Positions 7,594 to 60,998 are shown, counted from the whole stretch's first letter. The stretch: DNA of 63,805 bases, filler included, from Reclinomonas americana ATCC 50394 (GCA_048213135.1; 14 parts of 14 records of this genome joined end to end with filler, not necessarily neighbours in it), one strand, 5' to 3'. Program-made: numbers and translations. The notes: generated by a model from the letters alone, not told the origin.

Positions 7594-7693
7594 NNNNNNN
7601 NNNNNNNNNNNNNNNNNNNNNNNNNNNNNNNNNNNNNTTAATTAATTAANNNNNNNNNNNNNNNNNNNNNNNNNNNNNNNNNNNNNNNNNNNN
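7594..7693. other. Artificial scaffold gap spacer N44-TTAATTAATTAA-N44 (also at ~9866, 11637, 19579, 26786, 36127, 39265, 42192, 43778, 48361, 55449, 57344, 60899)
   Basis: Identical 100-bp blocks carrying a six-frame stop linker. Genes such as the ARM, Clu and PSP1 genes continue across them, so the contigs are ordered. True gap lengths are unknown. Confidence 0.97.
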
Positions 7694-7950
7694 ACCTCGT
7701 CACCTCGTCACCTCGTCACCTCGTCACCTCGTCACCTCGTCACCTCGTCACCTCGTCACCTCGTCACCTCGTCACCTCGTCACCTCGTCACCTCGTCACC
7801 TCGTCACCTCGTCACCTCGTCACCTCGTCACCTCGTCACCTCGTCACCTCGTCACCTCGTCACCTCGTCACCCTCGTCACCCTCGTCACTTCGTCACCTC
7901 GTCACTTCGTCACTTCGTCACCTCGTCACCTCGTCACCTCGTCACCTCGC
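7694..7950 (+). repeat. (CCTCGTCA)n 8-bp tandem repeat, intronic
   Basis: About 30 near-perfect copies abut the gap and decay into the pyrimidine tract before the acceptor at 8034. Confidence 0.95.
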
Positions 7951-8034
7951 CTCCTTTGTCACCTCGCCTCCTTTGTCACCTCACTTCACCTCTTTGTCCT
8001 CTCCTTCTCCCTCCCTCTTCTGTGCATCTCACAG

Positions 8035-9565: not shown

Positions 9566-9612
<47 letters not shown>

Positions 9613-9639
9613 GTCTGTGCGTCTGTGTGTCAGTCTGTG

Positions 9640-9714
<75 letters not shown>

Positions 9715-13778: not shown

Positions 13779-25908
<12,130 letters not shown>

Positions 25909-26504: not shown

Positions 26505-26785
26505 CGTTCCTCTTGCTGTGCTCTCGTTCCTCTCGCTGTGCTCTCGTTCCTCGCGCTGCGCTCTCGTTCCTCGCGCTGCGCTCTCGTTCCTCTCGCTGCG
26601 CTCTCGTTCCTCGCGCTGTGCTCTCGTTCCTCGCACTGTGCTCTCGTTCCTCTCGCTGTGCTCTCGTTCCTCTCGCTGCGCTCTCGTTCCTCTCGCTGCG
26701 CTCTCGTTCCTCTCGCTGCGCTCTCGTTCCTCTCGCTGTGCTCTCATCCCTCTCGCTGTACTCTCGTCCCTCTCGCTGTACTCTC
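26505..26785. repeat. 20-bp tandem repeat CTCTCGTTCCTC(T/G)CGCTG(C/T)G
   Basis: About 14 copies running into the gap. Confidence 0.92.
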
Positions 26786-26887
26786 NNNNNNNNNNNNNNN
26801 NNNNNNNNNNNNNNNNNNNNNNNNNNNNNTTAATTAATTAANNNNNNNNNNNNNNNNNNNNNNNNNNNNNNNNNNNNNNNNNNNNCA

Positions 26888-29800
26888 GTGTCCCGGTGGA
26901 TATCCGAGTCTTCTTGTGGCTTCATCTTTTTTCGCTTCATCTGCGTATCGCTTCTCCACGATTGCACAATTTTGAATTTTACCACCTTGAGTGTCAAGCA
27001 ATCACACTCCTGCTTCTCTGCTCTGCTTGTGCAGCCACCAGAATGTGATCGGCATCTACGGCATTGTACCAGACTCTCCGAATGGACCAGGCTACTTGAT
27101 GGACTTTTGCGAGGGCGGTTCATTGTCAGACTTGCTATTTATTCGCAGCGAGCATCTCACCAATGTGGAGGTGAGCCTCGCAATTGCTCCTTTTACTTGC
27201 CGTGTGTTTATTTTTCACACTGGTTTCCCGCATCACAGCGTCTCGATTTGTGTATCGACGTTGTGCGAGGCCTGGTAAATTTGCATCGCCACGGCATTGC
27301 TCATCGTGATCTCAAACCGGAGAACGTGCTTTTGGATGCGCATCGCGTCCCTCGTCTCGCCGATTTCGGTCTTGCTGACACTGCATCAACCGCTGCACGG
27401 CTTACCGGTGCCGTCGGTACACCATTGTGAGTGACGTTCGTTGACGAGCAAGGTTTCTTGTTTTCTCACTTGCATCCGTGACAGGTTCATGGCACCCGAA
27501 GTGATGAATGCGGAGGTGAGGAAAAAATTAGACGTGTTACTTTGCTGATGTTGCTCTCCAGTCAACCGTGAATTTATTACGCTCCGCAGCCATACGATCT
27601 GCCTTCCGACATTCACTCTATGGCAATGATCATCTGGGTGGTTTTTGCATCCGAGCTTCATTTTGCGGGACTCGCACCACTGCCGGTGTGTGTATTTCGC
27701 ATATCTTCCGCCTTAATTGTCAACTAAAAGCAATCATCAGCTGGCACGGTGCATTGATCGCGGGGATCGTCCACCATTGACGTCGATTCCCTCTGATCTT
27801 CATGGCATTGTTGCTCGCTGCTGGGTGAGTTGTACGGTTGCGCTATTCCTGTTGTCTCGGTACATCTTGTTGCCATTTTTTCTTTGCAGGCACCGGCGCC
27901 GGCCGATCGTCCATTGAGTGTGGATTTGCTTGCCAGCTTGCTGCAAGTTCGTCAGCTCTGGCATCAAGAAGAATCCATTCGGGACAAAGAGCGTGACCGT
28001 GGAGAAGCACGTCGGCGACCGCGAATTTCAGCATGGACCGAAAGGGAGGAGGTCTTACGGCCGCAGCGACTACGAGAAGAGATCGCCGCGCAAGGAGTGC
28101 AACAGATCCAGGAATCAGGGTTGAGGAGGCGCGAAAACCAATCGGTTGCTGTTGAGCAAGCACGGCTCGCTCAGCGGGAAGCGGAAGCTCGGCGACAGCA
28201 GGAAGCAGATGACCTGCGCCGTCGAGAGGAAGCTGCTGCCCGTGCCGAAGCAGAGCGGTGGCAACAGGAATCGGAGACCGCACGTCAGCGACAACTGCAA
28301 GAGGCCTCTGCAAGAGCGGAAGATGAACAACGTCGACACCAAGAGAAGAATGTCCGCCATCCGGTTTGTATTGCTTCCACAGACGTGCAGGAACGCTGCA
28401 GTTGTATTGATCTTCTTGTCACAGCTGTGCAAGAGATGCGGACAGCCAGCTGTTCCTGGCCAGGAATGCATGCACCACTTTTCAGTTGCGTGGTGTAGAA
28501 ATCATATTCTACAATTATTCGCGCATTGTAGGCTCAAATCTTCTTCCCAGTGGGTATGTTTGCGTCATTCGTGGCACGCCTACGGTTGCTAACGCGTTGT
28601 GTACCTGGCGACAACGACGATTAATGCAGGCTGTGAGTATGAGCACATCTCGTCTGTGTATGTGTGTGTGATCTGCTGTGGCGAAAGAGAAAGTGTGCAT
28701 GTTTGTATGACTTTGTGCCTGTTATGTCCTGCAAACTGATGAGGGTGTGCCTTTACTGACGAGTATGTGGCTTGTGTTGTTTCCCACGCGCGCGGTTTGC
28801 AAACGGCGATGCTTGCATGATTAATGCAGTTTGTGAGTATGAGTACATACATGTATGTGTGCATACGTGTTTGAGTTGTACTTGTTGCGCGAGTTGTTGA
28901 GTGTGTGTTGATCGCTGACTACCTGTGGCATGTGCGTTTGTGTGTGGCGGGGACGATGGCGATGGATGAATGACGGATACAGCCAGTTAAGTATGTGCAC
29001 AAAAGTGTGGAGTGTGTGTGTTTGTGTGTGTCCGTTGTGGTTGTGCGAATGAATGGGTGCGTGTGTGTGTCCTTGGCTGACTGCTCGTATGGTCTGTGCT
29101 TTGTGTGTGATATCGGCAATGGCGATGGATGTATGATCAATACAGCGAGTTGAGTATGTGTGCGTGTTTCGGAGAGTTTGTGTATATGTGTATGTTGTTG
29201 TTCTTGTTGATTTGTGCGCACGGATGAGTGTGTGTGTGTGTCGTAGACTGACTGCTGTGTGGCCTGTGTTTGTTTGTTTGATTGACGACGACCATGGCGA
29301 TGGATGCTTTATGGCAGGTCGTGAGTATGCGTTTATTTGTGTTTGGCGAGAAGATATGTGATTGTCGTTGATTTGTCAAATGGATACGATTGTGTGTGTA
29401 TGTGTTTGTGCGTGCGTGTGCGTTGTCGACTGACTGCCCGTGTGTGTGTGTGTGCTTGTGTGTGTATGACGGCGACATTGGCGATGGATGCATGCTAATG
29501 ATACAGATGGTGACTATGTGTGTGTGGATTGAGTGTGTGTTTGTTGTTATTGTTGTTGTTGTTTTGTGCGAATCGATGAGTGTGCGTCGTCGACTTACTG
29601 CATGTGGTGCATGGATTGTGTGCGATCAATGCAGGATGTGAGTTCGTGCACATGTTTGTTGTTGTGCGAATGGATGAGTGTTTGTCGTCGACTGACTGAG
29701 CATGTGGCCTCTTTCTGTGTCTATGACGACGACAATGGCGTTGTGTGAATCATAATGCAGGTAGTTGAGTGTGTGTCTGTGGAGAGAGTGTGTGTTTGTT

Positions 29801-31017
29801 GTTGTTGTGCGAGTAGATGAGTGTTTCTCGTCGACTGATTGTGCGTTTGGCCTGTGTATTATATATGCAAATGGCGACCATGGCGATGGATGTACGGTGG
29901 TGTAGAGAGTTGAGTGTACATATGTGTTTGTGTGTGTGTGTTGGTGATGTACTATTGCGCGTGTGAATGGATGAATGCTGCGCCGTCGACTGACTTTGTA
30001 TGTGTTCAATGTGATTTGCTTGTTTGACGGCGGCAATGGCGATGGATGCACGATGAAACAGGGAGTTGAGTATCTGTGTGTGCATACATGTGGATAGAAT
30101 GCGATTGTGTGTGCATACGTGTTTGTTGATGTTGATTTGCACGAACAAATGTGTGTGTGTCGTCGACTAACAGTATGTCTGGTGTGTGATTGTGTATAAT
30201 TCGGTGACTATGGCGATGGATACGTGATGCAGGGAGTTGAGTTTGTATGTATGCGCGTAGAAAGAGAGAGAGAGCGTGTCTGTCGATGTAGTTGTGGTTG
30301 TTTGTACGAATGGATGGGTGCCTGTCGTCGGCTGACTGTGCGCTTGTGGCCGGTGTTTTGTTTGTATATGGGTGTGTGACTGTGACAATGACTATGGGTG
30401 CATGATATTGCAGGCAGTTGAGTATGCGTGTACGCGTGCGTGTGTGCTTGTTTGTTGCAGTTGTTTGCGCGAATGGGTGTGTGTTTGTCGTCGACCGACA
30501 GAGTGTGTTGCCTTTGTTGTTTGGGGGGTGTGATGGCGACAATGACGATGGATCCATTATAAATACAGCAAGCTGAGTATGTATGTATGTCTGTGTATCT
30601 ATTGAGAGTATCTGTTGTTGTTGTTGTTGTTGCTAATGTGTACATTTGTGAATCTGTATCTTCGACTGACTGTACATCTGGCCTGTGTTTTGTGTATGAC
30701 GGCGACAATGACGTTGGATGTATGATCAATGCAGTTGGTGAGTATGTGTGTGCATGCGGGTGGAGAGTGTGTTTGTTTGTGTGTGTATGTGCGTAGTCGT
30801 TGTTGTTTTGTTTTGTGCAAATGGATGTGCGTGTATGTCGTCGACTGACTGTGCTATGGCCTATAATTGTGTACGTGACGACGACAATGACGATGGATGT
30901 ATGATCAATACAGCATGTGAGTAAATGTGCAGATGTGTTTGTGTGTCTGTGTGTTTGTTGCCGTAATCTGCGAATGAATGAGTGCTTGTCGTCGACTGAC
31001 TCTGCGTGTGGCTTGTG

Positions 31018-31059
<42 letters not shown>

Positions 31060-31174
31060 TTGTGTGTGTGTATGTGTGTGTGGCGGCGACAACGGCGGCG
31101 AATGCGTGATTATGCAGCGAGTTGAGTGTGCATGTACGCATGTGTGTGTGGCTAAGAGCTGGTGCATGTGTGTC

Positions 31175-31244
<70 letters not shown>

Positions 31245-33425
31245 GATATGTGCGAATGGACAAGCGAACGTCGTCGACTGACAGTGCATGTGGTTTGTTT
31301 TGTGTGACGATCTAAATGTGACGATGGATGCGTAATTATGCAGGGAGTTGAGTCTGTGTGTGTCTACATGTGCATGCATGCGTGAAGAAAGACGGATAGA
31401 GAGAGAGAGAAGAGAGAGTCTGTGCGTGTTGTTCTTGTCGTTGTTGTTTTGTGTGAATTGGCTTGCGTATGTGTCGTCGACTGACAGTTTATGTGATCTT
31501 TATTTGTGTTTGCGTGCCGACGACGACTCTGATGGTCCCATGGGCAAACAGGGAGTTGAGTATATGAGTGTATGCGTGTGGAGATATCGATAGTGTGTGT
31601 GTGTGTGCAAGTGTGTTTGTGTGCGTGTGTGTGTTTGTGTTTGCTGTAGATATGTGTGGATGGATGAGTGTGTGGCATCCACTAACTGTGCATATGACCG
31701 CTGTGTGTGTGTGTGTATGTGCTACGACGACAATGGTGATTGATGGATTATGATGCAGTGGGTGAGTGTGCGTGCACGTTTGAGCGAAGAGTGGGGACAT
31801 GTGTGCTTGTTGCTGTTGTATTATGCGTACGCATGAGCGTTTGCTGTTGACTGACCATGTTCGGCCCTGTGTTTCTGTGTGTGACTGTGACGATGCCGAT
31901 GGATGTACGATCAATGCAGTATGTGAGTATGCGTGTGTTTGCGTGGAGAATGTGTGTGTGTGTGTTTGTTGCTATTGTATTGCGTGTGTCGTTGACTGAT
32001 TGTGCATCTGGTCTGTGTGTATCGATGACAACGGCTATGGATACTTCAGGGAGTTGAGTATGCATGTATGTGGTAGACAGAGAAGAAGAGTGTGCGTGTG
32101 CGTTTGTAGTTGCTTGTGCGTATGGTTGCGTATGTGTCGTCGACTTACTGTGCATGTGGCCTGTGTTTCTGTGCGACGGCGGTAATGGCCACGGTTTCAC
32201 GATGATGTAGGATGTGAGTATGCGTGCATGTAGATGAATGTGGAGTGTATGTGTTTGTTTGTTGAATTGTTTTGTGTGGATGGATGAACGTGACGTCGTC
32301 GACTTACAGCGAAATTGGTTTGTGTTTTGTGCGCGTATGTATGTGTGTGTAACGACGACAAATGGCAATGGTTGCGCAACGATGCAGGGAGTTGAGTATG
32401 TTGTGTGTGCGTGCGTATGTGTGCGTGTTTGTTTGTGTTGCTTTATGTGCATTTCGATAATTCAGAATGTGTGCTGTCGACTGATTGTGCCTGTTGACTG
32501 TGATATGTTGTGTGTGTGTGTGTGTGTGACGGCGACGATGGCGACGGGTACATGATGATGTAGCTGGTGATTATGCGTGGGTTACTGTATGTGTGTGTGC
32601 ACTCGTATGTGTGCTGCGGTTGTTGCTGCTGTTTTCTGCGAGTTGTTGAGTGTGTGTCGTCGTCGACTAACTGTGCATGTGGTTTGTTGTTGTATTCTTT
32701 GCGGTGGGTGCATGAATGTGCAGCAAGTTGAGTTTGCATGTTTGTTGATGTTGTGCTGTTGGAGTGTGTGTCGTTGACTGACTGTGTATGCGGTTTGTGC
32801 ATTTGTTTGCCACTGTGGTAATGACGATGGATGCGCGATGCTGCAGGGAGTTGAGTATGGATGTTTGGAGTGTGTGTTTGTGTATGTGTGTGTGTTCGTA
32901 CGACAGCAATTGTTGTTGTTTTCTTGTGCACACGAATGTGTGTCTACCGTCGACTGACTGCACGTTCTCTACTATTTTGTGTGACACGGCGTCAATCGAT
33001 TGATACACGATGATGTAGGATGTGAGTACGTGAATGTGTATACGTGTTAGTATAGATACATTGTCGTTGTCGCTGTGGCAATGGATGAGTCTGTCTCGTC
33101 GACTGACGGTGTATGTGCCTGTGCTTCATGTGTGACGGCGGCGACGGTATCAACTGTATGATGATGTAGTTTGTGAGTATATATGCAAGTATGTTTGTGT
33201 ACGTGTGTGTGTTTGTTGATGTTGTTTGTTCGACTGACTGCGTGTGGCCTGTTACTGTATGCGTTGCGGCGAAAATGGCGATGGATGCATGATTCATGCA
33301 GGGAGTTAAGTGTGCGCGTGTGTTTGTCATTTTTGCAATCGAGTTTGTGCAAATCGATGAATGTGTGTATTGTCGACTGACTCTTGCTGTGATTGGGCAG
33401 CCGGTTTGTGCTGCGTCCAATCTAA
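26888..33425 (+). CDS. Protein kinase (TKL-like) with coiled-coil tail and a proposed 29-micro-exon C-terminus; N-lobe in gap
   Basis: [66 protein letters not shown] and RCW...DRP span 27035-27960, followed by an E/R/Q-rich coiled coil to ~28350. The kinase call is secure; the extension through 28554-33425 is inferred. Confidence 0.85.
28554..33400 (+). repeat. Degenerate ~165-bp tandem array (29 units), each unit read as an intron plus a 3-nt micro-exon
   Basis: Each unit has GTCGACTGACTG ... GACGGCGACRATGGCGATGGATG ... YAG-NNN-GT(T)RAGT separated by TG-rich variable spacers. Unit spacing is 123-226 bp. Confidence 0.9.
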
Positions 33426-33463
33426 TTCGCCTTCTCTAGCTTACTGAACGCAATCTTTCATGA

Positions 33464-36126
33464 TCATGGTGGCCAGTTCAACAAGGTGTGCAGATGCTCT
33501 TCGTGCAACAGTGCCGAATCAAATTGCTGACGTTCGCGGTAGATGGTATTTGTAGTGCACAGCGCAGAAAATCTGTTGATGTCCTTATCCGCAAATAATT
33601 CTTCGCGTAGATGGCATGGATGTTGCGAATGCGTGCTCAAAAGAAACTGGTATAATTTGTGAACATCGTGTGTGAAGTAATCACTTCTGACTGCTGCTAC
33701 TGCTCCTTTCAGCCCTACATGATGTGGACGTGCTGCGGCTCGACTGATCTCCACGCGCCTGGATGCTTGCCATCCTCTGCACACATGCCTTGATGTTGGT
33801 ATGTAACAACAACTCCCAACTCGTCACAAGTCGATTGCCGCGTCTCGGAAGGACGTGTTTTCATGTTGCCGTGTGCTCATAGGTGCGGCTGAAGCATACG
33901 TGCGTAGGGTAATGCAATGCTCACCCAGCGTACACTGCGAATCTAATTCTACGCAAATGAATGGCGACAATCTGTGGACATCAACAGAGCTGCAGCTGGT
34001 CGACGTTATTGATCAGTGAACTGTATGTAGGCGAGGGGGAAGAGGAGACCGTCACAGACGAAGAGAGTGTAAGGTGAGCGGGTGGAGAAAAGTTGACATG
34101 TGAAAGGAATGAGGGGTGATTTCGATGCTGGGGGAAAGAGGGGAAAGAGCGAGGCTCGAGGGGAGAGTGGATGCAACGGGGCAAAGGGGTGGATGTGAAG
34201 AGAGGACGAGAGTGAGCCGACATGTGGAAGGAATGAGGGGATGATTCTGGGGGATCGAGGAAAAAGAAGCGAGGAGATCCTTGGGAACGAGGGAGGATGG
34301 GTGGACAGAGGGGGGGCATGATGGATAGTGGATACAGAGAAATGCTTGTTGGTGAGTTGTGTGATAGATGTGGGGAGAGTGTGGGATCAGTGGATGGGAA
34401 CGGTTCGGGAATGTGGGGCGAGTTGATGCAGTATAACTGAATGTCTTGTGAGTGGGTGCTGAGAAGGGAAGTGGGGGAAAAGTCAGGGGAGGAAACGGGA
34501 AAGGGAGTGAGGGCAGAGGTAAGTCGACACGAATGAGGGAATCAAGGGTGAATAGACAGACGCGAATGAAATTCAGATGACTGCACTGACAGCGAAGGTG
34601 AGTGGAGATGGGATGACTGAGTGAGTGAGCGCGTGAAGGAGACGAACTGACAGGACGAGCCGAGGTGGGCGAGATGCACGATCGGAGAATGAGATGGGCG
34701 AGTGAGTGAGTGACTGGCGAGGATGGTAGACTGCATGCACATCAGAATTGTAGGGGAGTGGATACTCGTGGAGGGAGTGAGAGAAAAGTATGAAGAGGCA
34801 TGACTGTGAGGTGACACGCATGGTGGGCGGAGTGAACATCGACAAGGGGGAGGGAATGAAAAGTGAGTGGGTGGCAAAGTCGGATGAAATGAGAGGGAAA
34901 GCAGTGGATGCAAGGTAGCGAAGACAGTGGTTGGGATGATTTGAGTGCGTGTGAGTGCTTATGCGGGAGGGTCGATGCGGGAGGAGGAGGAAGAGAAGGG
35001 AGATGGAAGGACAAGAGAGGGAGAAGGAGAGAAAAGAAGAGATGGCAGTCGAGGTGAAGGATTGGAGAAGAGAGAGGGAAAGAGAGCAGAGAAAAAATGA
35101 TGCAGGTTGATGAAGGGTGAGATGAGGGGCATGGAAGGACAAGGGTGTGGGGCGATTGAACACAAGAGAGAAGAGATGGCAGTCGAAGTGGAGTGTTAAA
35201 GAAGAGAGAGACGGAGGGAAAGAGAGAGAATTGATGAAGCGTGATATGAGGGAGTGACGATGGTGGCAGCGTGAGGGGTGAGTTTATGCGTGGAAGATAT
35301 GTAAGGTAGGCGACATCATGAATGCATTTGAGAGTGAGTGGATGGAGAAGGAGGCGATACGAGACGAGATGCGGTGATGCAGAAGCAGGGAATGTGTTTT
35401 GAGATGATTGAGTGGATGTGTGAGTGGTGAGGACGGTGTGAGGCGATGCGTAATGCGGAGTGAGATTGGTGGGCGGAAGAGACTGGGAATGAGGAGTGAG
35501 ATGCAGAAATGAGAGAGGAGAGAGAGGAGAGGGAGAGACATGTACAGTGCGCGAAAGGGCGTTCCTATACTTGTACCTCAGTCCTCCCTCGGAGAATGAG
35601 AAGTGGGTGAACATGAGTGAGTGAGGATATTTGATGGAGAGAGGGAGGGTGAGAGATGGAGAAGCAGAAGTGGAGGTGCGGTGCGATGGGAATGTTGGGA
35701 GTGCATGAGCAAGAGAGTGGATGAGTATGAGAGTGCCAACTGTGAGTGAGGACGTTTGATGGAGAGAGGGAGGGTGAGAGAGATGGAGAAGCAGAAGTGG
35801 AAGTGTGGTGCGATGGGGATGTTGGGAGTGCATGAGCAAGAGAGTGGATGAGTATGAGATGAGCCAACTGTGAGTGAGGATGGTTGATGGAGAGAGGGAG
35901 AGAGAAAGGGAGATGGAGAAGCAGAAGTGGAGGTGCGGTGTGGGGATGTTGGGAGCGCATGGGAAGTGAGCGGATGAGTATGAGAGTGCCAACTGTGAGT
36001 GAGGATGTTTGATGGAGAGAGGGAGAGTGAGAGATGGAGAAGCAGAAGTGGAGGTGCGGTGCGGATGTTGGGAGTGAATGAGCAAGTGAGTGGATGAGCA
36101 TGAGAGTGCCAACTGTGAGTGAGGAT
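33464..36126 (-). CDS. Hypothetical protein, 3' exons; upstream part in CT-rich introns and the gap
   Basis: Terminal exon ...GLKGAVAAVRSDYFTHDVHKLYQFLL...HLHTLLNWPP* (33464-~33715) with upstream exon-like segments to ~34020. The large upstream region is pyrimidine-rich on the minus strand, like introns of the other minus-strand genes. Confidence 0.45.
35620..36126. repeat. ~120-bp minisatellite
   Basis: About 4 copies of GAGATGGAGAAGCAGAAGTGGAGGTGCGGTGCG...GCCAACTGTGAGTGAGGAT. Confidence 0.88.
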
Positions 36127-36413
36127 NNNNNNNNNNNNNNNNNNNNNNNNNNNNNNNNNNNNNNNNNNNNTTAATTAATTAANNNNNNNNNNNNNNNNNN
36201 NNNNNNNNNNNNNNNNNNNNNNNNNNTTTTTCGCACCAGATGATTACGGAGAATTCAGACTTCTTCTTCTTCTTCTTCTTCTCCTCCTCCTCCTTCCCCT
36301 GTTCTCCTTCTTCCTCTTCTCCTTCTTCTTCTTCTTCTTCTTCTTCTCTCTTGGTATCTTGGTATTCTCCTTCTTTCTCATCATGGATCGTCGCTGTTTC
36401 GTTCTCTGTTGCA

Positions 36414-39264
36414 GAACCAGGTGGCTTGTTGAAGGACAAGAAGAAGAAGAAGCACAACACCGACGAGGGCACAGCCGCCATTGCCGCTGCGCGAAGTGAC
36501 GCGGAGAATCTAACTGAGCAGGGTGCGTCGTTCATTCTCGTTGCTGTCACATGCTTCGCGTCATGTGATGTCTCATCGTGGTCATGCATCCACGCAGCTG
36601 CTCTCCAGGAGCACATGGAACACACCGCGATGGATGGCATCGTCGAGGTACAGTGATTGTGTGTCATCCCAAACGGGCATGTCTCTCACTGACCTTCTCT
36701 CTCCCTCTCTTGGCATGCTTGACAGCAAGACGACTGCTCGCAAATGAACCACAGTGATGGCTTGCCAGCACGTGACTCAGTTGATACATCGATCCGCAAG
36801 CGTTCTCTGACGGTGAGCTCCAACGAGGTGCGTACCTCACTCGTCATTCGCTTGTGTGCTGACGGTTGCTTTATCCCCGAAGGTGGATGCATCCAGCGAT
36901 GACGAGCTTGCACCGCCGAAGAAGAAGAAGAAGGTTTGGATGCTGTGGCGCATCTGTTTTTTGTTGAGTTCTTCGTGACAATCCGTGGTGTGGATTCTTA
37001 ACATGGCAAGACTCGCGCTGCGAAAGAGCCCGTGGAGTTGAGTGCAGACGAGAAGCTGGTGCTGAACAAGCTGTTCGTTGCGTGTGCTGCTCACGGATCT
37101 CCTCATCCTCCTTGCGCTCACCGATGTTGGTGTGCCACGAGCAGCGACGCAATCGGAAGAGAATTCTGGTGAAGGCATTCGGCCTGATGGCGCCCATTGT
37201 TCAAGGGTTCACAGTTGCCCACCATCAGGATGTGCTGTTTGACCTTGCCTGTGACGACTGCGGGATTCCAATGGCGATGGCGGGTCGCACGTCTTCCGCA
37301 GTCAAGTACGCGTTCGGCAAGAGGCTTGGCTGCATGGCCAGGGACTCACGCAGAAGGACCTCCAAATCAGTGGAGGGCGTGCTCAAGAGCGTTAGCCAGT
37401 ACATCAAGGTAAGGGAACTTGTGTGTGTGTGACGACCATGACCTGTGAGCCACCCTTCAGATGATTGCAACCTGCAGATGAGTGAACTCTGTGGCGTCGC
37501 TCTGGTGGATGCTGTTGAGAGACCACTGATTGTTGTTGACGATCGTGGATATTCGGAGGTGAATTTCGTTGCACATTGTGTGCGCGCTCAGCGCGTTCGC
37601 TGATTTGGTCGAAGCTCACTCGGTTCGTGTGTGACAGGAATCGTGGGAGAAACTGCCACTCCGGAGCAAGAATCAGAGCAATCAATTTCTGCCATTTTTC
37701 GTCACGCAAGCCATGACTGCGCTCCGCGAGTGTCGTGGTCTCATGGTTGCACTGCTTCGAGACAAGAGTCTTTCTGGGACCGGGGTATCACGCGCCATCA
37801 CGTGGTGTCAGTCGAAAGGTCTGATTCTACTGCGACTGGCGTGGTTACACAAGTCACACGACGCAGTGACTGGTGTTGCAGAATCTGCAGAGACGATGAC
37901 GGTGGAGGATGGGAGGGATGAAGACGATGATGATGAGGGTGACAACGAAGATGAAGGCGATGATGCAGACATGGTACGCAGAGGACAGATAATGATCGCG
38001 TCGCACCCAGCCATATATTGATGTCTTGCGTTCACAGGTGGATGTGGGCGTTGACGATGAGGAAGAATCAAAGCCGAGTAAGGTTTGGATTGTTCACGGT
38101 AGCCCGTCGTCGGCGAAGCAGGCAGACTTGTTGATTGCGAATGATATGCGATTGCAGGGCGGCAAGTGTGGCCGTCGTGCGTTCACTGAAGACTTGAGCG
38201 AGGACGAGCAATTGACTCTTAACCGACTCCTAGTTGCGTGTGCATGTCCGCAACACCGAAGTATGACTTCTTGGCATTGAGTGCACGTGCTCATGTCACC
38301 TGTCGTACTGCGTGCAGCGATGTAACAGGAAGATGTTACTGGTGAAGGCATTCGGTATCATGGCTCCTTTCGTAATGAGATCCACGGTTCTTCATCATCG
38401 GCGCGTTCTCGTTGACCTCGCATGCAAGAAGTGTGGACTTCCATCATCGGGAGCGGGTAGCCCATCGTCGACAGTCATGGATTCATTGGGCAACAGTCTT
38501 TCGTACACTGTCAAGAACGCACGCCGCGAGACCCCGAAGTCAGTTGAAGGAGTTCTCCAGTGCATGAGCAAGTTTATCGAGGTGAGCACGGTTCAGTGCC
38601 GTTTCATGAAAGTTCACCACAACTGAAACGAGAGGCCTGCAGAGGAGTGGTCTGCGAGGTGATGCCATGGTGGATGCCGTTGAGCGACCTCTGGTGTTGG
38701 TGGACATTCGCGGTTACTCCGAGGTGTGATATCTCTCTCTCTCTGTCGTGTATGCCACTGTTCAATGTGCATTTGCATACTTACTTTCCGTGCGTTCTTT
38801 GGATAGGAATCGTCGCAGCTTCCGAAAGTGCCACACAACAAGCAGGGTCGTCTTCTGCCTTTCGTCTTGCAGACAGTGGAGGCACTCCACAACTGCCCTT
38901 CGCTGCTTGCCACTCTGCTTGGAGACGGCTGTCTCTCCGAGGCGGACATTGCACGTGCCACCAAGTGGTGCACTGAATCTGAACGAGGTTTGATGGCGTC
39001 AATTGCGTTTACTGCGTCGTGATCAATGTTGAAGTGCAAGATGCAGCTGTGACGGCGGTGACAGTGGTGAAGAAAGAAGAAGTGAAGGTGGAGGAGGAGA
39101 GCGAGGAGGATTCGGAGGACGGCAGCGAAGATGGGGACATTGATCTTGACATGAAGAGAAGCAAGGTATTCGTGTGGATGGTGAGGTGAGGTACATGCTG
39201 CAGCAGCACTTATTCGTGTGTCTGTCACAGCGACGCGGAAATGGTCCGGTGATCCTGAGCGTAG
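36414..39264 (+). CDS. Unknown protein with two copies of a multi-exon module, acidic linkers and poly-Lys NLS-like motifs; partial
   Basis: Copy 1 RRNRKRILVKAFGLMAPIV...LFDLACDDCGIP...RRRTSKSVEGVLKSVSQYIK aligns with copy 2 RCNRKMLLVKAFGIMAPFV...LVDLACKKCGLP...RRETPKSVEGVLQCMSKFIE. The FLPFFVTQ...RAITWC and LLPFVLQ...RATKWC segments also align. Confidence 0.7.
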
Positions 39265-42070
39265 NNNNNNNNNNNNNNNNNNNNNNNNNNNNNNNNNNNN
39301 NNNNNNNNTTAATTAATTAANNNNNNNNNNNNNNNNNNNNNNNNNNNNNNNNNNNNNNNNNNNNGTGCGTCAAATCCACTGGTCAACCACGCGTAAGCGG
39401 TGAAGATCGCAGTTCTCGACTTGTTCGGAGCTCCGAGAGCGAACACACACACACACACAAGGAACCTTCTGCTGCCCTCAAGATTGGTGTTTGTGTTGGT
39501 GTTTTTGGATATGGTTGAACTTGGTCATCAAGACAGCTGTTGCTTGTTGTGTTGACGAATGAAGCAGCTTGTCCGTCACCAATATCGAATTGCTGAAGCT
39601 GGCGTCCGAATCCGAGTTTCACCCTCCGCAGGCTTTTTGCAACAACAATCAGCATGTCGCTATGATCCTTTACGGACGAATAGACCTCAACACAAGCTGT
39701 AGGTACAGGTGTCGCGCTTCTCCAAATGCAATTGTCACGCCTCGGCTCCACACTCCGTTCTGCAATTATCTTTTTCCAACAGGCGCCTCTCTACTTACCC
39801 TCCTGTCGCATCGCCCTTCCTTCATCTGCTGCCTGGCTTCCTCTTGAAGCCGACTCTGCGCCGATTGGTTCGGATTCGGCTAGCGATTACCATTTCCAGC
39901 AGCGCATCCAATTATTCGACATTTTTCTTTGGCGAGCGAAGGTGAGCCGGTCACTCGAGTGGCACCTGTCACAGATGCGCGGCTCCTGTGAACTTCTTTC
40001 TGTATGTGTGTGCGTGCGTGTTCGTGCGTATGTGAGGTGTGTGTGACGCAATGACAGTGTTGTCGGGGTGAACGCCACGTGTTTTCCGAATCGTTCCGGT
40101 TTGCTCTCTCTCTCTCGCTCTCTCTTGTCGCACGCGTGTGTATGAGTGTGAGAGAGTCATAGAGCACACCGTCAAGTGGTTCACGCAGGGGCGACAGAAA
40201 TGGTCCACGAGTCGCTCGTTTGGGCATGTGCAGATGCACATGCGCAACCAGGGCCGACTGGGAAAACTCCTCTCTCGTGGCACGCACATGCACACGCATG
40301 CACTCTGCCAGCCTCGCTTCACTCTATGTGTGTCTCTCTCTGTCTCTCCCTCTTCCCTCTCTCTCTCTCTCTGGCTCCTTTTTGGTGTCCGATCACGTGT
40401 CATGACTCCGAGTGGGTTCATGTCGGAGTGTGACACGTTGCTCACCTGTCACTCTCCTCCTCCCCGCAATGCTGGTGTTTGCTTCGCTCTATCTCTTTGT
40501 GTGCGGATGTCGAGTTGTTGAGCATTCACTGTCGAGTAGCACGCGGGTCTCATCTGACTTGTCCATCGGGGGCCTATTTGACACATTTTTCTTTTTTTGG
40601 CTGCTGCTGTCGAGCACAAGCAAGCTCACAGAGCAAAAGTGCGTGTTTGTGTATGTGTGTGTGCATGTGCATGTGCGTGTGTGTGTTATGGGTAGAGGGA
40701 CACGAGAACTCCGGTGTTGCAGTGAGGTCTCTCTTTGCTCTGTTTTTGTGCTTTTGTCGCGTTTTGGTCGTGCTCTCGCCCTGTGGCTCCCCGCTGCTGT
40801 GCGAGTGAGAGTATGTCGGTCTGCGCACCCCTTGCTTCTGTGGCTCTTGTCGCGTGGGGTCGCTGTTGGGAGGCGATTCTCTTGCTGATGTCATTGCTCT
40901 TTCGTCATCATGAACACCATGCATTCCATTCTTTCCTTTGTTGCTTCGCAGCAGAAGCACTCGCGTACTGCTATACTCCGCCGTTGAGTTGTCTTCTGCT
41001 TCTGCTTTCTATCTCTTTTTCGCTTCTACCCCCTCGCATGTCATGACTTTTCTCGTCGCATTCGTGCTGTTCGGATCTGCTCGACAACTCTATTCTTCCT
41101 CTCTTCTCTCTCGCCCGCTCCTCTCGTTGCTGTGTGGTTCCTGGTGTTTTGGTAATCCCACTGATGTCGATATATCCGTTGTGTGGCTTCCGTTGCTTCG
41201 CGCCCATTTCATCTTTGATGGCCGATTCTGCGCTGTTTTGTGACTCCTGTTGTCGCGAATGTTTGTCAGTCGTCTCTTCCCTGCGGTGCACAAGATCCAG
41301 TCCTTCCTCCACCCACCTCATCGTTCTTGGTGGTTATCGGGCTGCGCTGCTCCCCGGCAAATCGTCTCGGGGGTGCGGAGGCGCCTGTGATTCCTTTTTC
41401 GTTCTCCTTTGCTTCCCTTGCAGCGAATGTCAAACTGCTTCCCCTCTGTTCCTCTTTGCGAGATCTATCCACTGTCTGTGCGTGTGTGTGTGTACAAGTC
41501 CGTGTCGTTTATGCAGTCGCGCCGATTGTTCGTCCCCCCGTGGTGTACTCCGGTAATGTGTCTGTGCTGGTGCCGTTGTGGCGCGCTCGTGCCACCGGTT
41601 GTGAATCCCACTGCAACAGTCACGCTCTCCCCTTTTTCTGGTGCACTCGCGGCAGAGAATCCTCGCGTGCTTGAGCGCGTGCTTGGCCAGTGCTTGATTC
41701 CACTACATCCGTTAGTATATTGTTGTGCTGTTGTGGAGCGCAGAGACAGTGCGTGTCTAAAGTAGAGGTACAGAGAGGGCTGTGGTGGAATCGTTCTTCG
41801 TTCCTGTCGCGCAGGAAATTTGCTGACGGCGGAATCGTCCGCTCGCGGTCTGTGCCGTCGTCTCGCCTGCACGCCGTGCGAAAATACTGTGCCGTCTCGT
41901 CATCCTTTCCGCCTCCTCTCTCTCTCTCTCTCCCCCCCTCTCTCTCTCCCGTTCTCGACTCCGCTGTTTGAGTTGCTACGCACTGCTCTTCTTTCGTTGC
42001 GTCATTGCAGGTTGGACTTACTGTTTGTCGATGTGTGTACAGAAACCCGCTTGTGAATTCCCGCCCCCCA

Positions 42071-43181
42071 TGCAAGTAGCCGCCAGCGCAGACGATTGTG
42101 ACTTGCGCACCACCCAATCCATGTCCACTGCCCCTGCCGATTCCCCAGTCGCCTCTGGAAAGGCCGCACTGCTGCTCTCGCAACAGGAGCANNNNNNNNN
42201 NNNNNNNNNNNNNNNNNNNNNNNNNNNNNNNNNNNTTAATTAATTAANNNNNNNNNNNNNNNNNNNNNNNNNNNNNNNNNNNNNNNNNNNNACCACCACC
42301 ACGGCCGCTGCAACAGCAGCACCGCCTGTTGCTGCTGCTGCTGCCGTTACTGCCACCACTCCTGCCCCAGCTGCACGCGCGACTGGACCTGTACAATATT
42401 TTCAAGGTTTGTGTGTCGGTCTTCTCTTCTTCTACCTTTTCTCTCTTTTGCTCACCCGCTTTCACAGTGGAGTTCAAGAACGACCGCCGTGGCACCTACA
42501 TCAAGGATGACGCTCATTTCTCGTACACTGCTGGTGACTTTGTTGTGGTGAATGCCGATCGCGGCGACGATGTGGGACGCATTGTCAAGCAGATCCCGCA
42601 AGACAAGATTTTGTACCCGGAGCGGATCGAGAAGCGCATTCTCCGACCGGCGTCACCGGCGGAGAAGATTGCGCTGCGTGAAAAGTACGAGTCGGAGGAG
42701 GCCGTGCTGAAGCTGTGCCGCGAAAAAGTCGCCGAATGCCATTTGCCCATTGAGGTATGTCTTGAGTGTGCTCGTGCCACTTGTTTGTGATTTGTACTTA
42801 TGCGTGCGCGACTCGTGTGTGTCCTCCTTGCAGCTGGCATACGTGGAGTACCAGTTCGATCGGAAGCGACTGACGGTGTACTACTGCTCGAATGAGCGAA
42901 TCGATTTCCGGCATTACGTGCGCGAGCTCTTCCAGTTGTTCCGCACGCGTATCTGGATGCAGCACATCCAGGAGGATGACGGTACACACCAGCACCATCA
43001 TGGCCACCACCAACACCAACAGCAGCAACAGCAACAGCATCACCACCACGAGGTGCCGCACCCGCCGGCGACTGGCCGCAGTGGCAAGGGCCAGCAGCAG
43101 CAGCAGCACCATCACCACCAGGCCTCGCAGCAAGTGCAGCAACGCAAGGCCAGTGGAATCGGCGGCCGGACACGCACGTGA
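42071..43181 (+). CDS. PSP1 C-terminal domain (YaaT/Tpl-like) protein with Q/H-rich tracts
   Basis: VEFKNDRR...GDFVVVNADRGDDVGRI...KRILRPA...EYQFDRKRLTVYYCSNERIDFRHYVRELFQLFRTRIWMQ. The start is tentative and the model spans a gap. Confidence 0.9.
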
Positions 43182-44384
43182 AGGCCGCCAGCCACCATCT
43201 CCATCTTCTCCTATCTTCGTTATCCCCCCTGTTTTTTGTTAATCGATTTGGTGCCGGGCTGCTCTCGTCGTCGCCCGCCGTGTCGGATAGTACACGAGCA
43301 CGCGAGAGGGAGAGAGCAGCGATCAAAGTCGACCGTGTTATGCGACGAGGACAGCACATGTGTGAAAAATGAAATTGGGCCCCACCTTGTGTAAACCGTA
43401 CATGGCAACAAGAAGAACACAAGCGAACAAGTGCTGTATCCCGCTTTTCTCACCTCTCTCTCCACACTGCCCTTCGTTTCCTCACCACGCTTATGCCGCG
43501 CACACACGCGAAAGGCCAGTTGAACCGTTGCCACGCGAAAGCACACGAAAAGCACGAAGAGGAATGTGCGGCACACATTTCATGCTCGCGACCGTTGATT
43601 GTCTGTGTGTAGTGCGCGTGTGACAAGAGCAGGCACACACAATGGCCGGCTCCTCGACCAAACCCATGGGTGGCTCCGTGGTCGAGTGGCTGGTACGCAC
43701 GTAGTCTTCTCTCTCTGTGCGTGCGTGTCTCTCTCTTTCTTTCTCACGCGTGCGCGACAGGACAAGGCACTTGATCCNNNNNNNNNNNNNNNNNNNNNNN
43801 NNNNNNNNNNNNNNNNNNNNNTTAATTAATTAANNNNNNNNNNNNNNNNNNNNNNNNNNNNNNNNNNNNNNNNNNNNCGCTGCACACCGTCTTCACTGTG
43901 CTGATGACACCACTGTTTCATCCAGGTGCTCTTTGTGCGCTTCTTGAACGGAAGCCACTTGTTTGCCGTGTTGCGCGATATGGGTCTCGCATGTGTGCCG
44001 CTGCTGGTGCCGGAGGAGCAGCGCGCCGACTTTGAGGCCGAGTTCGCTCACAGTTGCGTGCTGTGCTCATCATGGATGGCTGGCACGTAACTAATAGCAC
44101 GTGTGGCACGCACAGCTCCAGCGCCGTCGGAGATCATGCCCCGAGTGGAGGAGAGCGGAAGCGAACGAGAGCAGTATCCCTTCCGACGGAGTCGCCGAGA
44201 CAAACCCTCGGCAACTCACGAGTCGCCGTTTGTGTTTTGACCGCGGCGGCGACAGACTCTTGATATAATGAAGCACGAAGAGATGCAGTTGATGATGCGG
44301 GGCGAGGGAGAATCACCCACCGTCTGTCCGCTACTCACATCTCTCCGCCGATGTCATTGTCGGTCGACATTGCCAGACGCTTCA

Positions 44385-46383: not shown

Positions 46384-47854
46384 ATGCGGAAAACTCGCGC
46401 GTCCGAAAACTTATCGTCCTTTTTTCCCGCCCGCGTCCGTTTTCTCTTCGATCGCACATGGAGAGACAAGAGTGTCTGCGCGTGGGCGATGTATGCGCCT
46501 CGGATCCGCTCGGACTCGAGCGGGAGTCAGTGCACGCAGTGTGCTTCCGACCGCGGCGTGTGGAGCGGACACGACATCGTCCGACACCGCTCGATGCCGA
46601 GGAAGAAGGGTGTGCATGCCAGTTGTCTTCCTCTTCTCACTGTCTCTGACACCTCCTCCTCTTGCGCAGTGATGGGTATGCACTTGCCGCGGTGTGCGAG
46701 AGCGGTCTGATCCGCCTGGGCGATGCGTCCACTGGTCGCGTGTCGAATGCCATGGACGCGGTGGTGATGACGGCTGGTGAGGGTGGTGCGTATGTTAGTG
46801 CTGCGGCGGTGGAGCAGCAGCGAGTGGAGCATGAGCAGCAGTGTGAGAGCGATCCGGGGGTGCCTCCATTGCGGCCGCTGGTGTGGTCGGTGGTGTGGAA
46901 TGCCGATGGGACGATTGGCACGGCCAAGTTGCGAGGAGGAGGAGTGCTGTGAGTGAGTGTATGTGTGCTCATTGATCAATGTGTGCATGCAGTACGCGTG
47001 ATAATCGTGTGTTTCTGTGGACGGATCCAATGTTGCGCGGTGTCGGTGTGCGGCTACTGGGAACGGTGACGGATGCGGCGGCGAGTGGCATTACGGCAAT
47101 GGAGGGCTCGCCCAGTGGAGAGTTCTTTGCGGTGTCGACGCCCGAGGGCCATGCGTCGGTTTGTCAATCGCATCGCATGCTGTCTGATGTGTGAGAGAGT
47201 GATGCAGACGCGCAGGTGTGGCGTGTGGGCGAGTGGACGCGACTGTCGTTGCCGGTGTACCACACGTTTGGACTGACGAGTGTGCGGTGGTCGCCCGACA
47301 GCTCCATGCTGCTGCTGACCTCGCACGATCGGCGCGCCACCATCTGGCGATTGGAACCAGAAGGCAATGAGCTGGTGCTGGCCGCGGTCATGACTGGCCA
47401 CCGCAGCTCGGTGACGTGCGGCCACTGGTCGTGTGATCAGGAGCACGTGGCCACGGGCGGCGAAGACGGTCAGATCCTCATCTGGTCGAGTGCCACGGGC
47501 GATTGCGTGCAAGAGGTCGCGTCGTCGTCGTCGTCAAGCCGAGCCTTCCCGTGTCGCTGCATCAGCTTCCACCCGCTCTATCCGGGCATGCTGGTGGCGG
47601 GGCTCGCCAGTGGCGGTGGTGTGCTGCTGTGGGCGGCCGACGAGTGCGCCGCGCTCGACGAGCAGCTGAAAAAGTCGGCAGTGACTGGTCTCGCGTGGCG
47701 CCCCGACGGCGCCGCACTGGCCGTCTCCTGCTCCAATGGCACCGTGGTGGTGTACGTCGACACGGCGGCTGTGTTGCACTTGCAGCAGCCACTCCACTCA
47801 CCACCGTCGAGACCACCGACGTTGAAAAAGAACCCCGCTGCCGACCTTCAGTGA
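46384..47854 (+). CDS. WD40-repeat protein (start uncertain)
   Basis: HTFGLTSVRWSPD...SHDRRATIW, GHRSSVTCGHWS...ATGGEDGQILIW, SAVTGLAWRPDG...SNGTVVVY. Confidence 0.9.
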
Positions 47855-48513
47855 AACAAGAGCTGTCCTTTTCGTCGTCCTCGCGTGTTGTTGATTGAAA
47901 GAGAGCGAGGGGAATGCGTCTGGCCAGTGCAGTGGGCCCACTGGTGTTCACCGGCCTCGTGGGTCTCCTCTGGCTCTTCTCAGGCGACGCCGATGCACGC
48001 GCACCACGTTGCGTCGCATGTGCATTCTCATCTCTCTATTTCGCACGCACTCTCTGACACTGTGCGCTCTCATGCACACACAGCACGTGGCGCAGCAGGA
48101 GCGGGAGCAGGTGCAGCAGGCGGCCCTGCACCCTCAGCCTCCTTCCTCTCCGCACTGCAGGACTTTGTGAGTGGCGCCGGTGCCTTGTCCGCGCTGGGCT
48201 TCCCCGAGGCCGACGCGCGAGACTCCTCCGTGCAGTTCGAGCTCATCTCTCAAGTGCAGTGTGTGACCACAGTGGGGCGACCTGTGTCGGCATCTGTGAG
48301 GAACCAGCCGGCCGCCGATCAGAGGCGACTGGGCATATGAGTGAAGAAGAATGCGTGTTTNNNNNNNNNNNNNNNNNNNNNNNNNNNNNNNNNNNNNNNN
48401 NNNNTTAATTAATTAANNNNNNNNNNNNNNNNNNNNNNNNNNNNNNNNNNNNNNNNNNNNGTGAGTGTGAGTGAGTGTGAGTGCGTCAGTTGCCTCCACG
48501 CGTGTGACGCGCA

Positions 48514-48913: not shown

Positions 48914-51607
<2,694 letters not shown>

Positions 51608-60897: not shown

Positions 60898-60998
60898 ANN
60901 NNNNNNNNNNNNNNNNNNNNNNNNNNNNNNNNNNNNNNNNNNTTAATTAATTAANNNNNNNNNNNNNNNNNNNNNNNNNNNNNNNNNNNNNNNNNNNN

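Follow-up and report, generated by a model that had tools for sequence, protein, structure and literature searches.

The window, by which we mean the whole 63.8-kb stretch of DNA that was analysed, consists of 14 contigs linked by N44-TTAATTAATTAA-N44, and sequence outside 26886..36126 does not represent the true neighbours of the array described here. Within this contig, a 4.8-kb repeat lies downstream of a protein kinase gene. The features are as follows.

26886..36126, no strand assigned: array-bearing contig, delimited by N-run positions and linker sequence
27035..28501, + strand: protein kinase gene, 3' half (Pfam PF00069, E 5.6e-15), with a continuous frame after intron removal
27035-27170, 27239-27426, 27485-27515, 27590-27685, 27741-27824 and 27890-28501, + strand: kinase exons
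28364..28424, + strand: candidate 61-nt intron, GTTTGT...CACAG, which we infer
28425..28553, + strand: candidate Cys/His-rich exon of 43 codons, ending at the first donor of the array
28499-28501, + strand: kinase stop codon, TAG
28554..28629, + strand: predicted first intron, 76 nt, with a GTATGT donor, a GCTAAC branch-like motif and no internal AG
28630..33304, + strand: core array of 29 three-base spacers and 28 predicted chimeric introns of 120-223 nt
33305..33400, + strand: predicted last intron, 96 nt, with a GTTAAGT donor and a GACTGAC branch motif 20 nt before CAG
33401..33439, + strand: candidate terminal exon, in phase 0 reading 12 codons and then TAG
33467..33823, - strand: 119-codon open reading frame, no Pfam family

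Removal of five GT-AG introns of 55-74 nt yields a single continuous kinase frame, which carries the GTPLFMAPE motif and one 11-residue motif. A homolog search with a kinase exon returned generic kinases only (35-67% identity), the kinase tail ORF found one weak match among 1.84 billion representatives, and of the 596 pattern matches from a metagenome scan with the kinase tail protein, not one was confirmed; these searches yielded no ortholog. The kinase stop precedes the array by 52 nt, so the array need not belong to the coding region or even to that transcript. The preliminary description had placed the triplets of the array on the tail of the kinase, with 28532-28553 as a kinase exon. The array does lie downstream of the kinase gene, but the frame ends before it unless the unverified intron at 28364-28424 is used, and 28532-28553 finds no support as a kinase exon. 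If the candidate intron were used, the stop would be bypassed and the kinase frame would continue into 28425-28553; the joined frame is open and reaches 28553 in phase 0. The region 28425..28553 is open in two of three frames and shows only insignificant Pfam matches (E 0.08-0.1), and Pfam searches gave no homology support for the candidate intron and exon at 28364-28553.

On the other side of the array, Pfam and homolog searches with the minus-strand frame at 33467-33823 found no family and no match, and its codon-usage score is not coding-like, although this is a weak test. A real gene at this frame would place the array between convergent genes. The array unit was not found elsewhere within the window. 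Other tandem repeats are present on the array's contig, and a homolog search with a WD40 ORF gave weak matches only.

We examined the junctions of the array. All 29 triplet coordinates proposed earlier are preceded by YAG (24 CAG and 5 TAG, with no other base at acceptor position -3 and with A and G in 29/29 units each) and followed by a donor-like motif, and the opening GTATGT at 28554 and the closing CAG ending at 33400 are both present. The spacing from one YAG-3 nt-donor junction to the next is 123-226 bp, without a double-length gap, indicating that no unit has lost its junction. Each core intron has a donor, a CTNAY motif, an AG-free zone and a YAG. The distance from CTNAY to the acceptor has a median of about 65 nt and is mostly 50-81 nt (37 in one unit and 118 in another). 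Some features count against splicing of the units: they are two to three times as long as the five verified introns of the kinase gene, their branch-to-acceptor distance is unusually long where those introns measure 55-74 nt in total, and the sequence ahead of the acceptor is rich in purines and in G and T and lacks a pyrimidine tract.

The donors fall into two types. Thirteen are GTG-type (11 GTGAGT, 1 GTGACT and 1 GTGATT), and 16 are longer by one base (13 GTTGAGT, 2 GTTAAGT and 1 GCTGAGT), so that 11 GTGAGT and 15 GTT[AG]AGT donors are found, and the three weak donors comprise one GC donor and two with a mismatch at +5 (one C and one T). An A occupies position -1 in 16/16 extra-base donors and in 0/13 normal donors, which suggests that the former are read as AG|TTGAGT in a shifted U1 register, an association of A with the extra T that was possibly inherited from one founder. 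Shifted and +3-bulge U1 registers have been described, including the oligonucleotide ACAGUCAAGUAUA labelled 'Shifted +1' (PMC4856993). The 13 GTGAGT-type donors would pair with U1 in the normal register, and the 16 extra-base donors (A|GTTGAGT) would use a shifted or bulged register.

We next compared the conservation of these signals with the decay of the units. The mean pairwise identity between units is 62%, the top value across the three nearest neighbours listed per unit is 74%, the mean identity to the consensus is 0.78 over 141 well-occupied columns, and no higher-order periodicity was found across units at lags 1-4; the array units are old. The copies are too diverged for Tandem Repeats Finder, which missed the ~165-bp period of the array. 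In spite of this decay, the repeat donors keep G in 29/29 and T in 28/29 units (one GC donor), or +1 G in 30/30 and +2 T in 29/30 when GTATGT at 28554 is included. The CTNAY branch motif of the internal units keeps C in 28/28, T in 27/28 and A in 28/28, with G, T or A at N. Of the 141 columns, 15 are conserved at 93% or more; 10 of them lie within the donor, the branch motif or the acceptor, and five are isolated T or G positions elsewhere. All 11 occurrences of GT[AG]AGT in 28500-33450 are at junctions, as are 15 of the 17 occurrences of GTT[AG]AGT, and the combined branch-acceptor-donor pattern has 4 matches, compared with 0 in 100 shuffles. Because the units share ancestry, any shuffle test in which they count as independent overstates significance. 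A metagenome scan with the composite branch/acceptor/donor DNA pattern gave 0 matches.

Judged from this alignment of the 29 units, AG and GT are kept above background, in line with the preliminary description, but the exactness of the 3-nt spacing goes only modestly beyond expectation. Selection has evidently kept every splicing signal intact while the remaining unit sequence decayed. Two further ideas about the divergence were discarded: the restriction of signal positions to permitted variants (C to T) is not significant, as 81% of all C changes are to T, and RIP-like hypermutation does not fit a set of changes that includes 42% transversions and a G+C content that is not depressed.

A further line of evidence is the distribution of AG within the units. 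From branch+8 to the acceptor, the 1572 nt of 27 units contain no AG, whereas 89±7 are expected from mononucleotide shuffles (minimum 64 of 1000) and 23.6±3.4 from column-composition shuffles (minimum 12 of 1000). No other dinucleotide drops to zero within the zone, and the complementary CT occurs 51 times, with 51.1 expected, which makes the constraint strand-specific and suggests that it acts at the level of RNA. By comparison, the 5' parts of these units contain 87 AG in 2372 nt, and 141/141 non-junction AGs are within the first four fifths of the unit. The exclusion zone, a concept described in PMC1431707, spans 52-151 nt in 30/30 introns, and the acceptor YAG is the first AG past the branch site. 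An AG-exclusion zone restricted to one strand in this way is characteristic of 3' splice sites that are in use.

These results bear on the idea of an inert minisatellite, intergenic or 3'-flanking, whose splice-like motifs are unused leftovers of the founder. In favour of this idea, the array begins past the kinase stop, an opposite-strand open frame begins 66 nt beyond it, and other tandem repeats share its contig. However, neutral decay to 62% identity should have lost some of the 29 AG and GT pairs and should have made about 24 AGs in the exclusion zones, where none is observed, and it would not deplete AG on one strand while sparing CT. In a comparison repeat of 114 bp at 14381-14941, some of the splice-like motifs are already lost at 83% identity. 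We therefore agree with the earlier view that the repeat is not an inert satellite, because its conserved positions are spliceosomal signals and an AG-exclusion zone precedes every acceptor, and we rate the inert reading as improbable. On these grounds the units behave as individual introns, and the 3-nt spacers as micro-exons.

We also considered whether the units are conserved as RNAs. RNAalifold found 0 conserved pairs over 28 units, and an Rfam search at E up to 5 found no family, with a single chance-level match to a viral pseudoknot; with neither a conserved fold nor an Rfam family, splicing has no competitor as the cause of the conservation. The array could in principle host intron-encoded small RNAs, with a snoRNA-like molecule in each intron and irrelevant exons, as in SNORD115/116. 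Outside the splice signals, every unit shows blocks of moderate conservation (TGCGAATGGATGAGTG and GGCGACAATGGCGATGGATG), and GGATGA...CTGA in each unit resembles the C and D boxes of the C/D consensus. These box-like motifs are about 14 nt apart, while a box C/D RNA has boxes at least 60 nt apart and a terminal stem; the GGATGA block is not strongly conserved, and CTGA is fully explained as the branch motif. Although tandemly repeated introns are known in that setting (PMC3413130), the Rfam and RNAalifold results also speak against a small-RNA host, and this explanation is very improbable. A spliced-leader RNA gene array was rejected, as variability within the unit peaks at the three bases ahead of the donor, where such an array has an invariant mini-exon, and no Rfam SL family was matched.

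Taken as a whole, 28554-33400 on the + strand probably holds about 30 complete U2-type spliceosomal introns in tandem, with 3-nt exons between them. Its ends record how it may have grown. The first intron is homologous to the 3' two thirds of the unit and the last intron to the 5' part only, the latter having its branch motif as close to the acceptor as in a normal short intron. These end-unit homologies indicate growth by tandem duplication of a segment composed of the 3' part of an intron, 3 nt and the 5' part of the next intron, and together with the chimeric units they bear out the earlier proposal of growth by duplication of an intron+exon unit. The founder state would be a 3-nt exon between two ordinary short introns, as the anatomy suggests. 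Repeated tandem duplication or unequal crossing-over would have copied a segment that starts within the first intron, spans the 3 nt and reaches into the second intron, and each duplication would have added one chimeric complete intron and 3 nt. Neighbouring triplets differ from one another, indicating that the spacers are not target-site duplications. Introner-type mobile introns are recognized by dispersed near-identical copies with target-site duplications; within the 63.8-kb window, the array copies are contiguous and about 62% identical. A 19-22-nt direct repeat that flanks the region (28358-28380 and 33398-33419) was rejected as a target-site duplication, since it scores 24 in local alignment and shuffled sequences reach up to 30 (mean 19.8).

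Transcripts leaving the kinase gene would then be spliced unit by unit, across each intron, as is expected because the verified introns of this genome are 55-74 nt long. Branching would occur at the A of CTNAY, the acceptor would be the first AG downstream, and the mature RNA would retain the 3-nt spacers, which no use of the internal sites can remove. The 87 nt of spacers would form either a glycine-rich 29-residue stretch in phase 0 or part of a 3' UTR.

A different fate of the triplets would follow from stepwise shrinkage of one long intron. The units would be spliced first, reducing 4.85 kb to ~260 nt (first intron, 87 nt and last intron), and in the last step this stretch would be removed or the 87-nt composite skipped, giving a mature mRNA without triplets. 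Shrinkage accounts for selection on the internal signals, suits a genome with 55-74-nt introns and requires no meaning in the triplets, which are among the most variable unit positions (consensus frequencies 0.41-0.55). But it requires exon skipping of the composite and leaves the constant 3-nt spacing unexplained. Under intron definition, exon skipping is uncommon. We find shrinkage hard to credit, if a little less so than the inert minisatellite.

We then asked whether the triplets are coding. The reading under test takes them as translated single-codon exons on the C-terminus of the kinase, with variable skipping that produces a ladder of protein isoforms. The spacer is 3 nt at 29/29 junctions, while the adjoining stretch of about 11 nt differs in length between units (15 units have 11 nt, 8 have 12, 2 have 9, and single units have 14, 8 and 4), and only a 3n spacer permits such an array to expand within a reading frame. 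The expected number of spacer indels is only about 2-4, and thus the constant spacing is weak evidence. Translation reproduced the open phases 0 and 1, and in phase 0, at which the candidate intron 28364-28424 would link the kinase frame through the open 43-codon exon to the first donor, no stop interrupts the 29/29 triplets or the 12 codons that follow. From base counts, we estimate that 29 triplets would lack a stop by chance with a probability of ~0.13-0.25, so the stop-free phases 0 and 1 are not significant, and phase 2, which the preliminary description preferred, contains stops in translation. Against the reading are also the end of the kinase frame at 28499-28501 when the extra intron is left out and the lack of a family or homolog for the candidate exon 28425..28553. 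Codon-usage log-odds, trained on 1901 window codons, did not separate coding from non-coding sequence for the short candidates and are uninformative here. Translation of the triplets is thus a tentative reading that we consider unlikely. The combinatorial diversifier of the preliminary description is speculative. The same doubt attaches to a kinase gene with 29 consecutive single-codon exons, each flanked by complete introns maintained by selection, in which unequal crossing-over of an intron+codon unit would have built and resized the array and would give an in-frame glycine-rich linker of variable length and sequence, differing between alleles (copy number) and between transcripts (skipping).

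If the array is spliced as its signals imply, it is a natural test of how small and how densely packed exons can get, with thirty introns in 4.8 kb and 3-nt exons, for which exon definition cannot operate and sequential joining is obligatory. The array would, moreover, clearly exemplify introns that multiply through tandem duplication of their own ends, a route of intron gain that would cost the gene only one codon per event. Should the single-codon-exon reading be true, this would be the smallest-exon and highest-density exon array known. Such arrays escape standard gene finders and read aligners, and similar ones may be missed elsewhere. The 28 old paralogous intron copies would, in addition, serve as a natural mutagenesis series of the intron positions that the spliceosome requires.

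Several known systems resemble parts of this array. In the long introns of Drosophila, recursive splice sites (ratchet points) place an acceptor beside a donor in a long non-coding stretch that is removed stepwise, and the array likewise has acceptor and donor side by side in a long stretch. At a ratchet point, however, zero bases separate AG and GT and nothing is left, whereas 3 nt lie between AG and donor in 29/29 units and only 2/29 triplets begin with GT, so the spacers of the array must stay in the product. In intron 7 of human F7, a 37-bp VNTR repeats the exon-intron boundary and multiplies the 5' splice site (PMC1557585); this minisatellite repeats the donor only, whereas the array repeats donor, branch site and acceptor, that is, whole introns. 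A single tandem genomic duplication can yield a whole new intron (PMC3265369, PMC2891723 and PMC4974935). In those gains, the duplicated element is an exonic AGGT and former exon becomes the new intron, whereas the piece duplicated here bears the ends of two existing introns and would give a chimeric intron, over about 28 rounds. Human RPS24 is one of the real genes with a spliced 3-nt exon, and such exons are also reported in Amphidinium carterae (PMC12207440 and PMC12584245), but these are isolated or occur in runs of three micro-exons of different sizes, while the array has 29 copies made by duplication. In the SmPoMuc mucin genes of Schistosoma mansoni, exon 2 and its flanking intron are tandemly repeated, and the micro-exon+intron unit is duplicated head to tail up to ~20 times in one gene (PMC2576457). 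SmPoMuc and the array share an exon length that is a multiple of 3 (3 nt in 29/29 for the array), so that the frame is kept when the copy number changes. SmPoMuc has a 27-bp exon, a ~1-kb unit, intronic parts that are >94% identical and sequenced transcripts (PMC2576457), whereas the array, known from its DNA, has a 3-nt exon, a ~165-bp unit and ~62% identical copies in which only the splice signals are preserved.

The array (28554-33400, + strand) is built of units of about 165 bp, each with an acceptor, a 3-nt spacer and a donor at its junction. On re-reading of the sequence, all 29 triplet coordinates in the preliminary description, which had taken the array for 29 single-codon micro-exons on a kinase tail, proved correct, and all 29 junctions consist of YAG (24 CAG and 5 TAG), three bases and a donor. 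The junctions lie 123-226 bp apart with no double-length interval, indicating that no unit lacks its junction. The copies have diverged too far for Tandem Repeats Finder to report the ~165-bp period; the unit is clearly visible in a MAFFT alignment. Compared pairwise, the 30 units are 62% identical on average; among the three closest counterparts listed per unit, the maximum is 74%, and no higher-order periodicity shows at lags 1-4.

The splice signals stand out from this divergence. The mean identity to the consensus is 0.78 (141 alignment columns, each filled in 24 or more of 28 units), while the acceptor A and G are present at 29/29 junctions, the donor G at 29/29 and the donor T at 28/29, so the AG and GT positions are indeed conserved above the unit background. 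Position -3 of the acceptors is C or T only. The branch motif of each unit, CTNAY, lies within the block GTCGTCGACTGACTG and retains its C in 28/28, its T in 27/28 and its A in 28/28 units; its N varies, being mostly G, with T in three units and A in three. The block CGACTGAC also recurs as part of array units. The spacer bases are among the most variable of the unit (consensus frequencies 0.52, 0.41 and 0.55).

The donors comprise 13 of GTG type (11 GTGAGT, 1 GTGACT and 1 GTGATT) and 16 with an extra base (13 GTTGAGT, 2 GTTAAGT and 1 GCTGAGT, a GC donor). Within 28500-33450, all 11 occurrences of GT[AG]AGT and 15 of the 17 occurrences of GTT[AG]AGT are at junctions. An A precedes the donor in 16/16 extra-base donors and in 0/13 normal donors. 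Shifting A/GTTGAGT one base to the right gives AG/TTGAGT, a single mismatch to the AG/GTGAGT consensus, and excerpts of two reports document U1 pairing in a shifted register or with a +3 bulge for human 5' splice sites (PMC4856993; PMC9311317). The link between the A and the extra-base donor may descend from a single founder; in this class the first two spacer positions are altered in 7 of 16 units and the A is unchanged.

The most telling result of the analysis is the AG-exclusion zone, the AG-free interval from the branch motif to the acceptor. For all 30 acceptors, the nearest other AG upstream is 52-151 nt away. No AG occurs in the 1572 nt between the branch A +8 nt and the acceptor in 27 units (one unit, whose branch motif was wrongly located by the motif search, was left out; its exclusion zone is 79 nt). 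Shuffling each zone gives an expectation of 89±7 AGs (minimum 64 in 1000 shuffles), and within-column shuffling, which keeps the column content, gives 23.6±3.4 (minimum 12 in 1000). No other dinucleotide is absent from the zones, and CT, the complement of AG, is found 51 times against 51.1 expected, indicating that the constraint acts on one strand, i.e. on RNA. The 5' parts of the units contain 87 AGs in 2372 nt, and none of the 141 non-junction AGs falls in the last fifth of its unit. Because the commonest change in the array is G-to-A, AGs must have been created repeatedly and then eliminated. That no AG should stand between a branch point and its acceptor is predicted by the scanning rule for choosing a 3' splice site, as set out in part of one report (PMC1431707).

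An inert satellite cannot explain this strand-specific AG depletion and is rejected. A comparison repeat elsewhere in the window is, at its level of identity, already without some splice-like motifs:
14381-14941: 114-bp tandem repeat, 5 copies, 83% identity
The repeated unit holds intron-like pieces (CT[GA]ACAG, 6-9 bases, GTGAGTGG, then about 40 nt on TTTCTGCTRCAG). Unlike in the main array, the donor is lost or the acceptor changed in some copies, and the spacer length is inconstant.

Judged from conservation within one array of units sharing ancestry, on which all functional readings rest, the array is probably a series of about 30 introns that are under selection and spliced one by one, with exons of 3 nt; we consider this the best reading. 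Every signal is conserved in every unit of so old an array, which argues for use of the internal sites; with splicing confined to the outermost donor and acceptor, the signals inside would decay freely or, acting as decoys, be counterselected. Spacers are left behind whenever internal sites are used, so the mature RNA would be expected to carry joined triplets totalling up to 87 nt. This composite could alternatively be skipped as a whole after unit splicing, which is the sole route to later triplet loss. We infer these splicing steps, and also that they would have to be sequential, since the two ends of a 3-nt exon cannot be occupied simultaneously. A host array of structured small RNAs is disfavoured, as the units have no Rfam match and no pairing conserved across them. 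Two further candidates were excluded: a spliced-leader array, because variability is highest in the bases preceding the donor, and recursive ratchet points, because of the 3-nt spacer.

The two end introns suggest how the array arose.
28554-28629 (+): first intron, 76 nt, GTATGT...GCTAAC...CAG
33305-33400 (+): last intron, 96 nt
The first aligns solely to the 3' two thirds of a unit, and the last, whose GACTGAC lies 20 nt from CAG in ordinary short-intron geometry, solely to the 5' part. The internal units therefore appear chimeric: the downstream intron supplies their 5' part, branch site included, and the upstream intron their 3' part. This accounts for the branch motif lying ~65 nt from the acceptor in internal units. 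The simplest history would start from two normal introns around one 3-nt exon and proceed by repeated tandem duplication of a piece spanning that exon, each duplication adding one complete intron and three bases.

At the left end of the array's contig, upstream of the array, lies a + strand protein kinase gene (Pfam PF00069, E 5.6e-15), of which the 3' half is present.
26886-36126: array contig, 9.2 kb
27171-27238, 27427-27484, 27516-27589, 27686-27740, 27825-27889 (+): kinase introns, 55-74 nt
28364-28424 (+): candidate intron, 61 nt, GTTTGT...CACAG
28425-28553 (+): candidate Cys/His-rich exon, open, 43 codons, phase 0 at the first donor
Removal of the five GT-AG introns (donors, in order, GTGAGC, GTGAGT, GTGAGG, GTGTGT and GTGAGT; CAG acceptors in 5/5) gives a single uninterrupted kinase frame, which passes through a charged coiled-coil-like tail and ends at TAG 28499-28501, 52 nt before the array start.

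That the triplets encode the tail of this kinase is possible, and we regard it as unlikely. The candidate intron, if used, would join the kinase frame to the candidate exon, for which no family or homolog was matched. In phase 0 of the joined triplets each triplet is a codon, 10/29 being GGA (glycine) and 0/29 stops, and 12 further codons past the array lead to TAG 33437-33439. The exon chosen in the preliminary description, with an alternative acceptor at 28531, would lead to phase 1, which is likewise open; the phase 2 that it preferred contains stops. Stop-free triplets are weak evidence, with a chance of about 0.13-0.25 from the triplet base counts. The constant 3-nt spacing does favour a reading-frame constraint, but only modestly: the neighbouring ~11-nt stretch takes six different lengths in the 28 units, and at that rate about 2-4 indels would be expected in the spacer. 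A 19-22-nt direct repeat (CCGGTTTGT..TGC.TCCA) is present at 28358-28380 in the kinase tail and at 33398-33419 right after the last acceptor, both copies reading PVC.AS in frame; it may be due to chance, its alignment score being within the shuffle range. On the opposite strand, a 119-codon open frame starting 66 nt beyond the array has no support as a gene from Pfam families, homolog search or codon usage.

The window consists of 14 short contigs of about 1.4-9.2 kb, stitched by N44-TTAATTAATTAA-N44 linkers, and gene order and neighbourhood across the linkers are artificial.
7594-7693, 9866-9965, 11637-11736, 19579-19678, 26786-26885, 36127-36226, 39265-39364, 42192-42291, 43778-43877, 48361-48460, 55449-55548, 57344-57443, 60899-60998: linkers
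7694-7982, 9330-9865, 9973-10218, 19428-19837, 26505-26785, 31175-31245: micro- and minisatellite stretches
35617-36126: 127-bp purine-rich tandem repeat, about 4 copies, 87% matches
36968-37429, 38267-38623 (+): paralogous open frames, 52% identity over 95 residues, E 2e-27
3978-5615 (+): HECT domain
24367-24729 (-): CLU domain
42711-43178 (+): PSP1 domain
47195-47851 (+): WD40 domain
50347-51603 (-): second protein kinase domain
53595-54620 (+): PP2C domain
Micro- and minisatellites are unusually abundant, many of them at contig ends, and probably caused the assembly breaks; they include (ACCTCGTC)n, (TCTG)n, 24-bp and 20-bp repeats and long (GA)n, and (TGT)24 sits inside one array unit. The 127-bp repeat runs into the end of the array contig and begins GTGAGTGAGG, with no acceptor-like partner. 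The paralogous open frames, which share a contig and neither of which has a Pfam family, look like a tandemly duplicated gene. The six domains are on contigs other than the array contig. None of the three ORFs searched for homologs has close relatives in protein collections, and the organism therefore seems to be without sequenced near kin in those collections.

A limited full-text literature search found neither arrays of single-codon exons nor arrays with tens of introns in tandem, and the 'tandemly repeated introns' in the excerpts it returned were snoRNA hosts in every case. The separate elements have precedents in parts of published reports: single 3-nt exons are known elsewhere (PMC12207440; PMC12584245), and tandem duplication is a known route of intron gain (PMC3265369, PMC2891723, PMC4974935). 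In the SmPoMuc genes of Schistosoma mansoni, as an excerpt of one report describes, a micro-exon and an intron are tandemly duplicated together; there the exon is 27 bp, and the ~1-kb units are >94% identical and number up to about 20 copies (PMC2576457).
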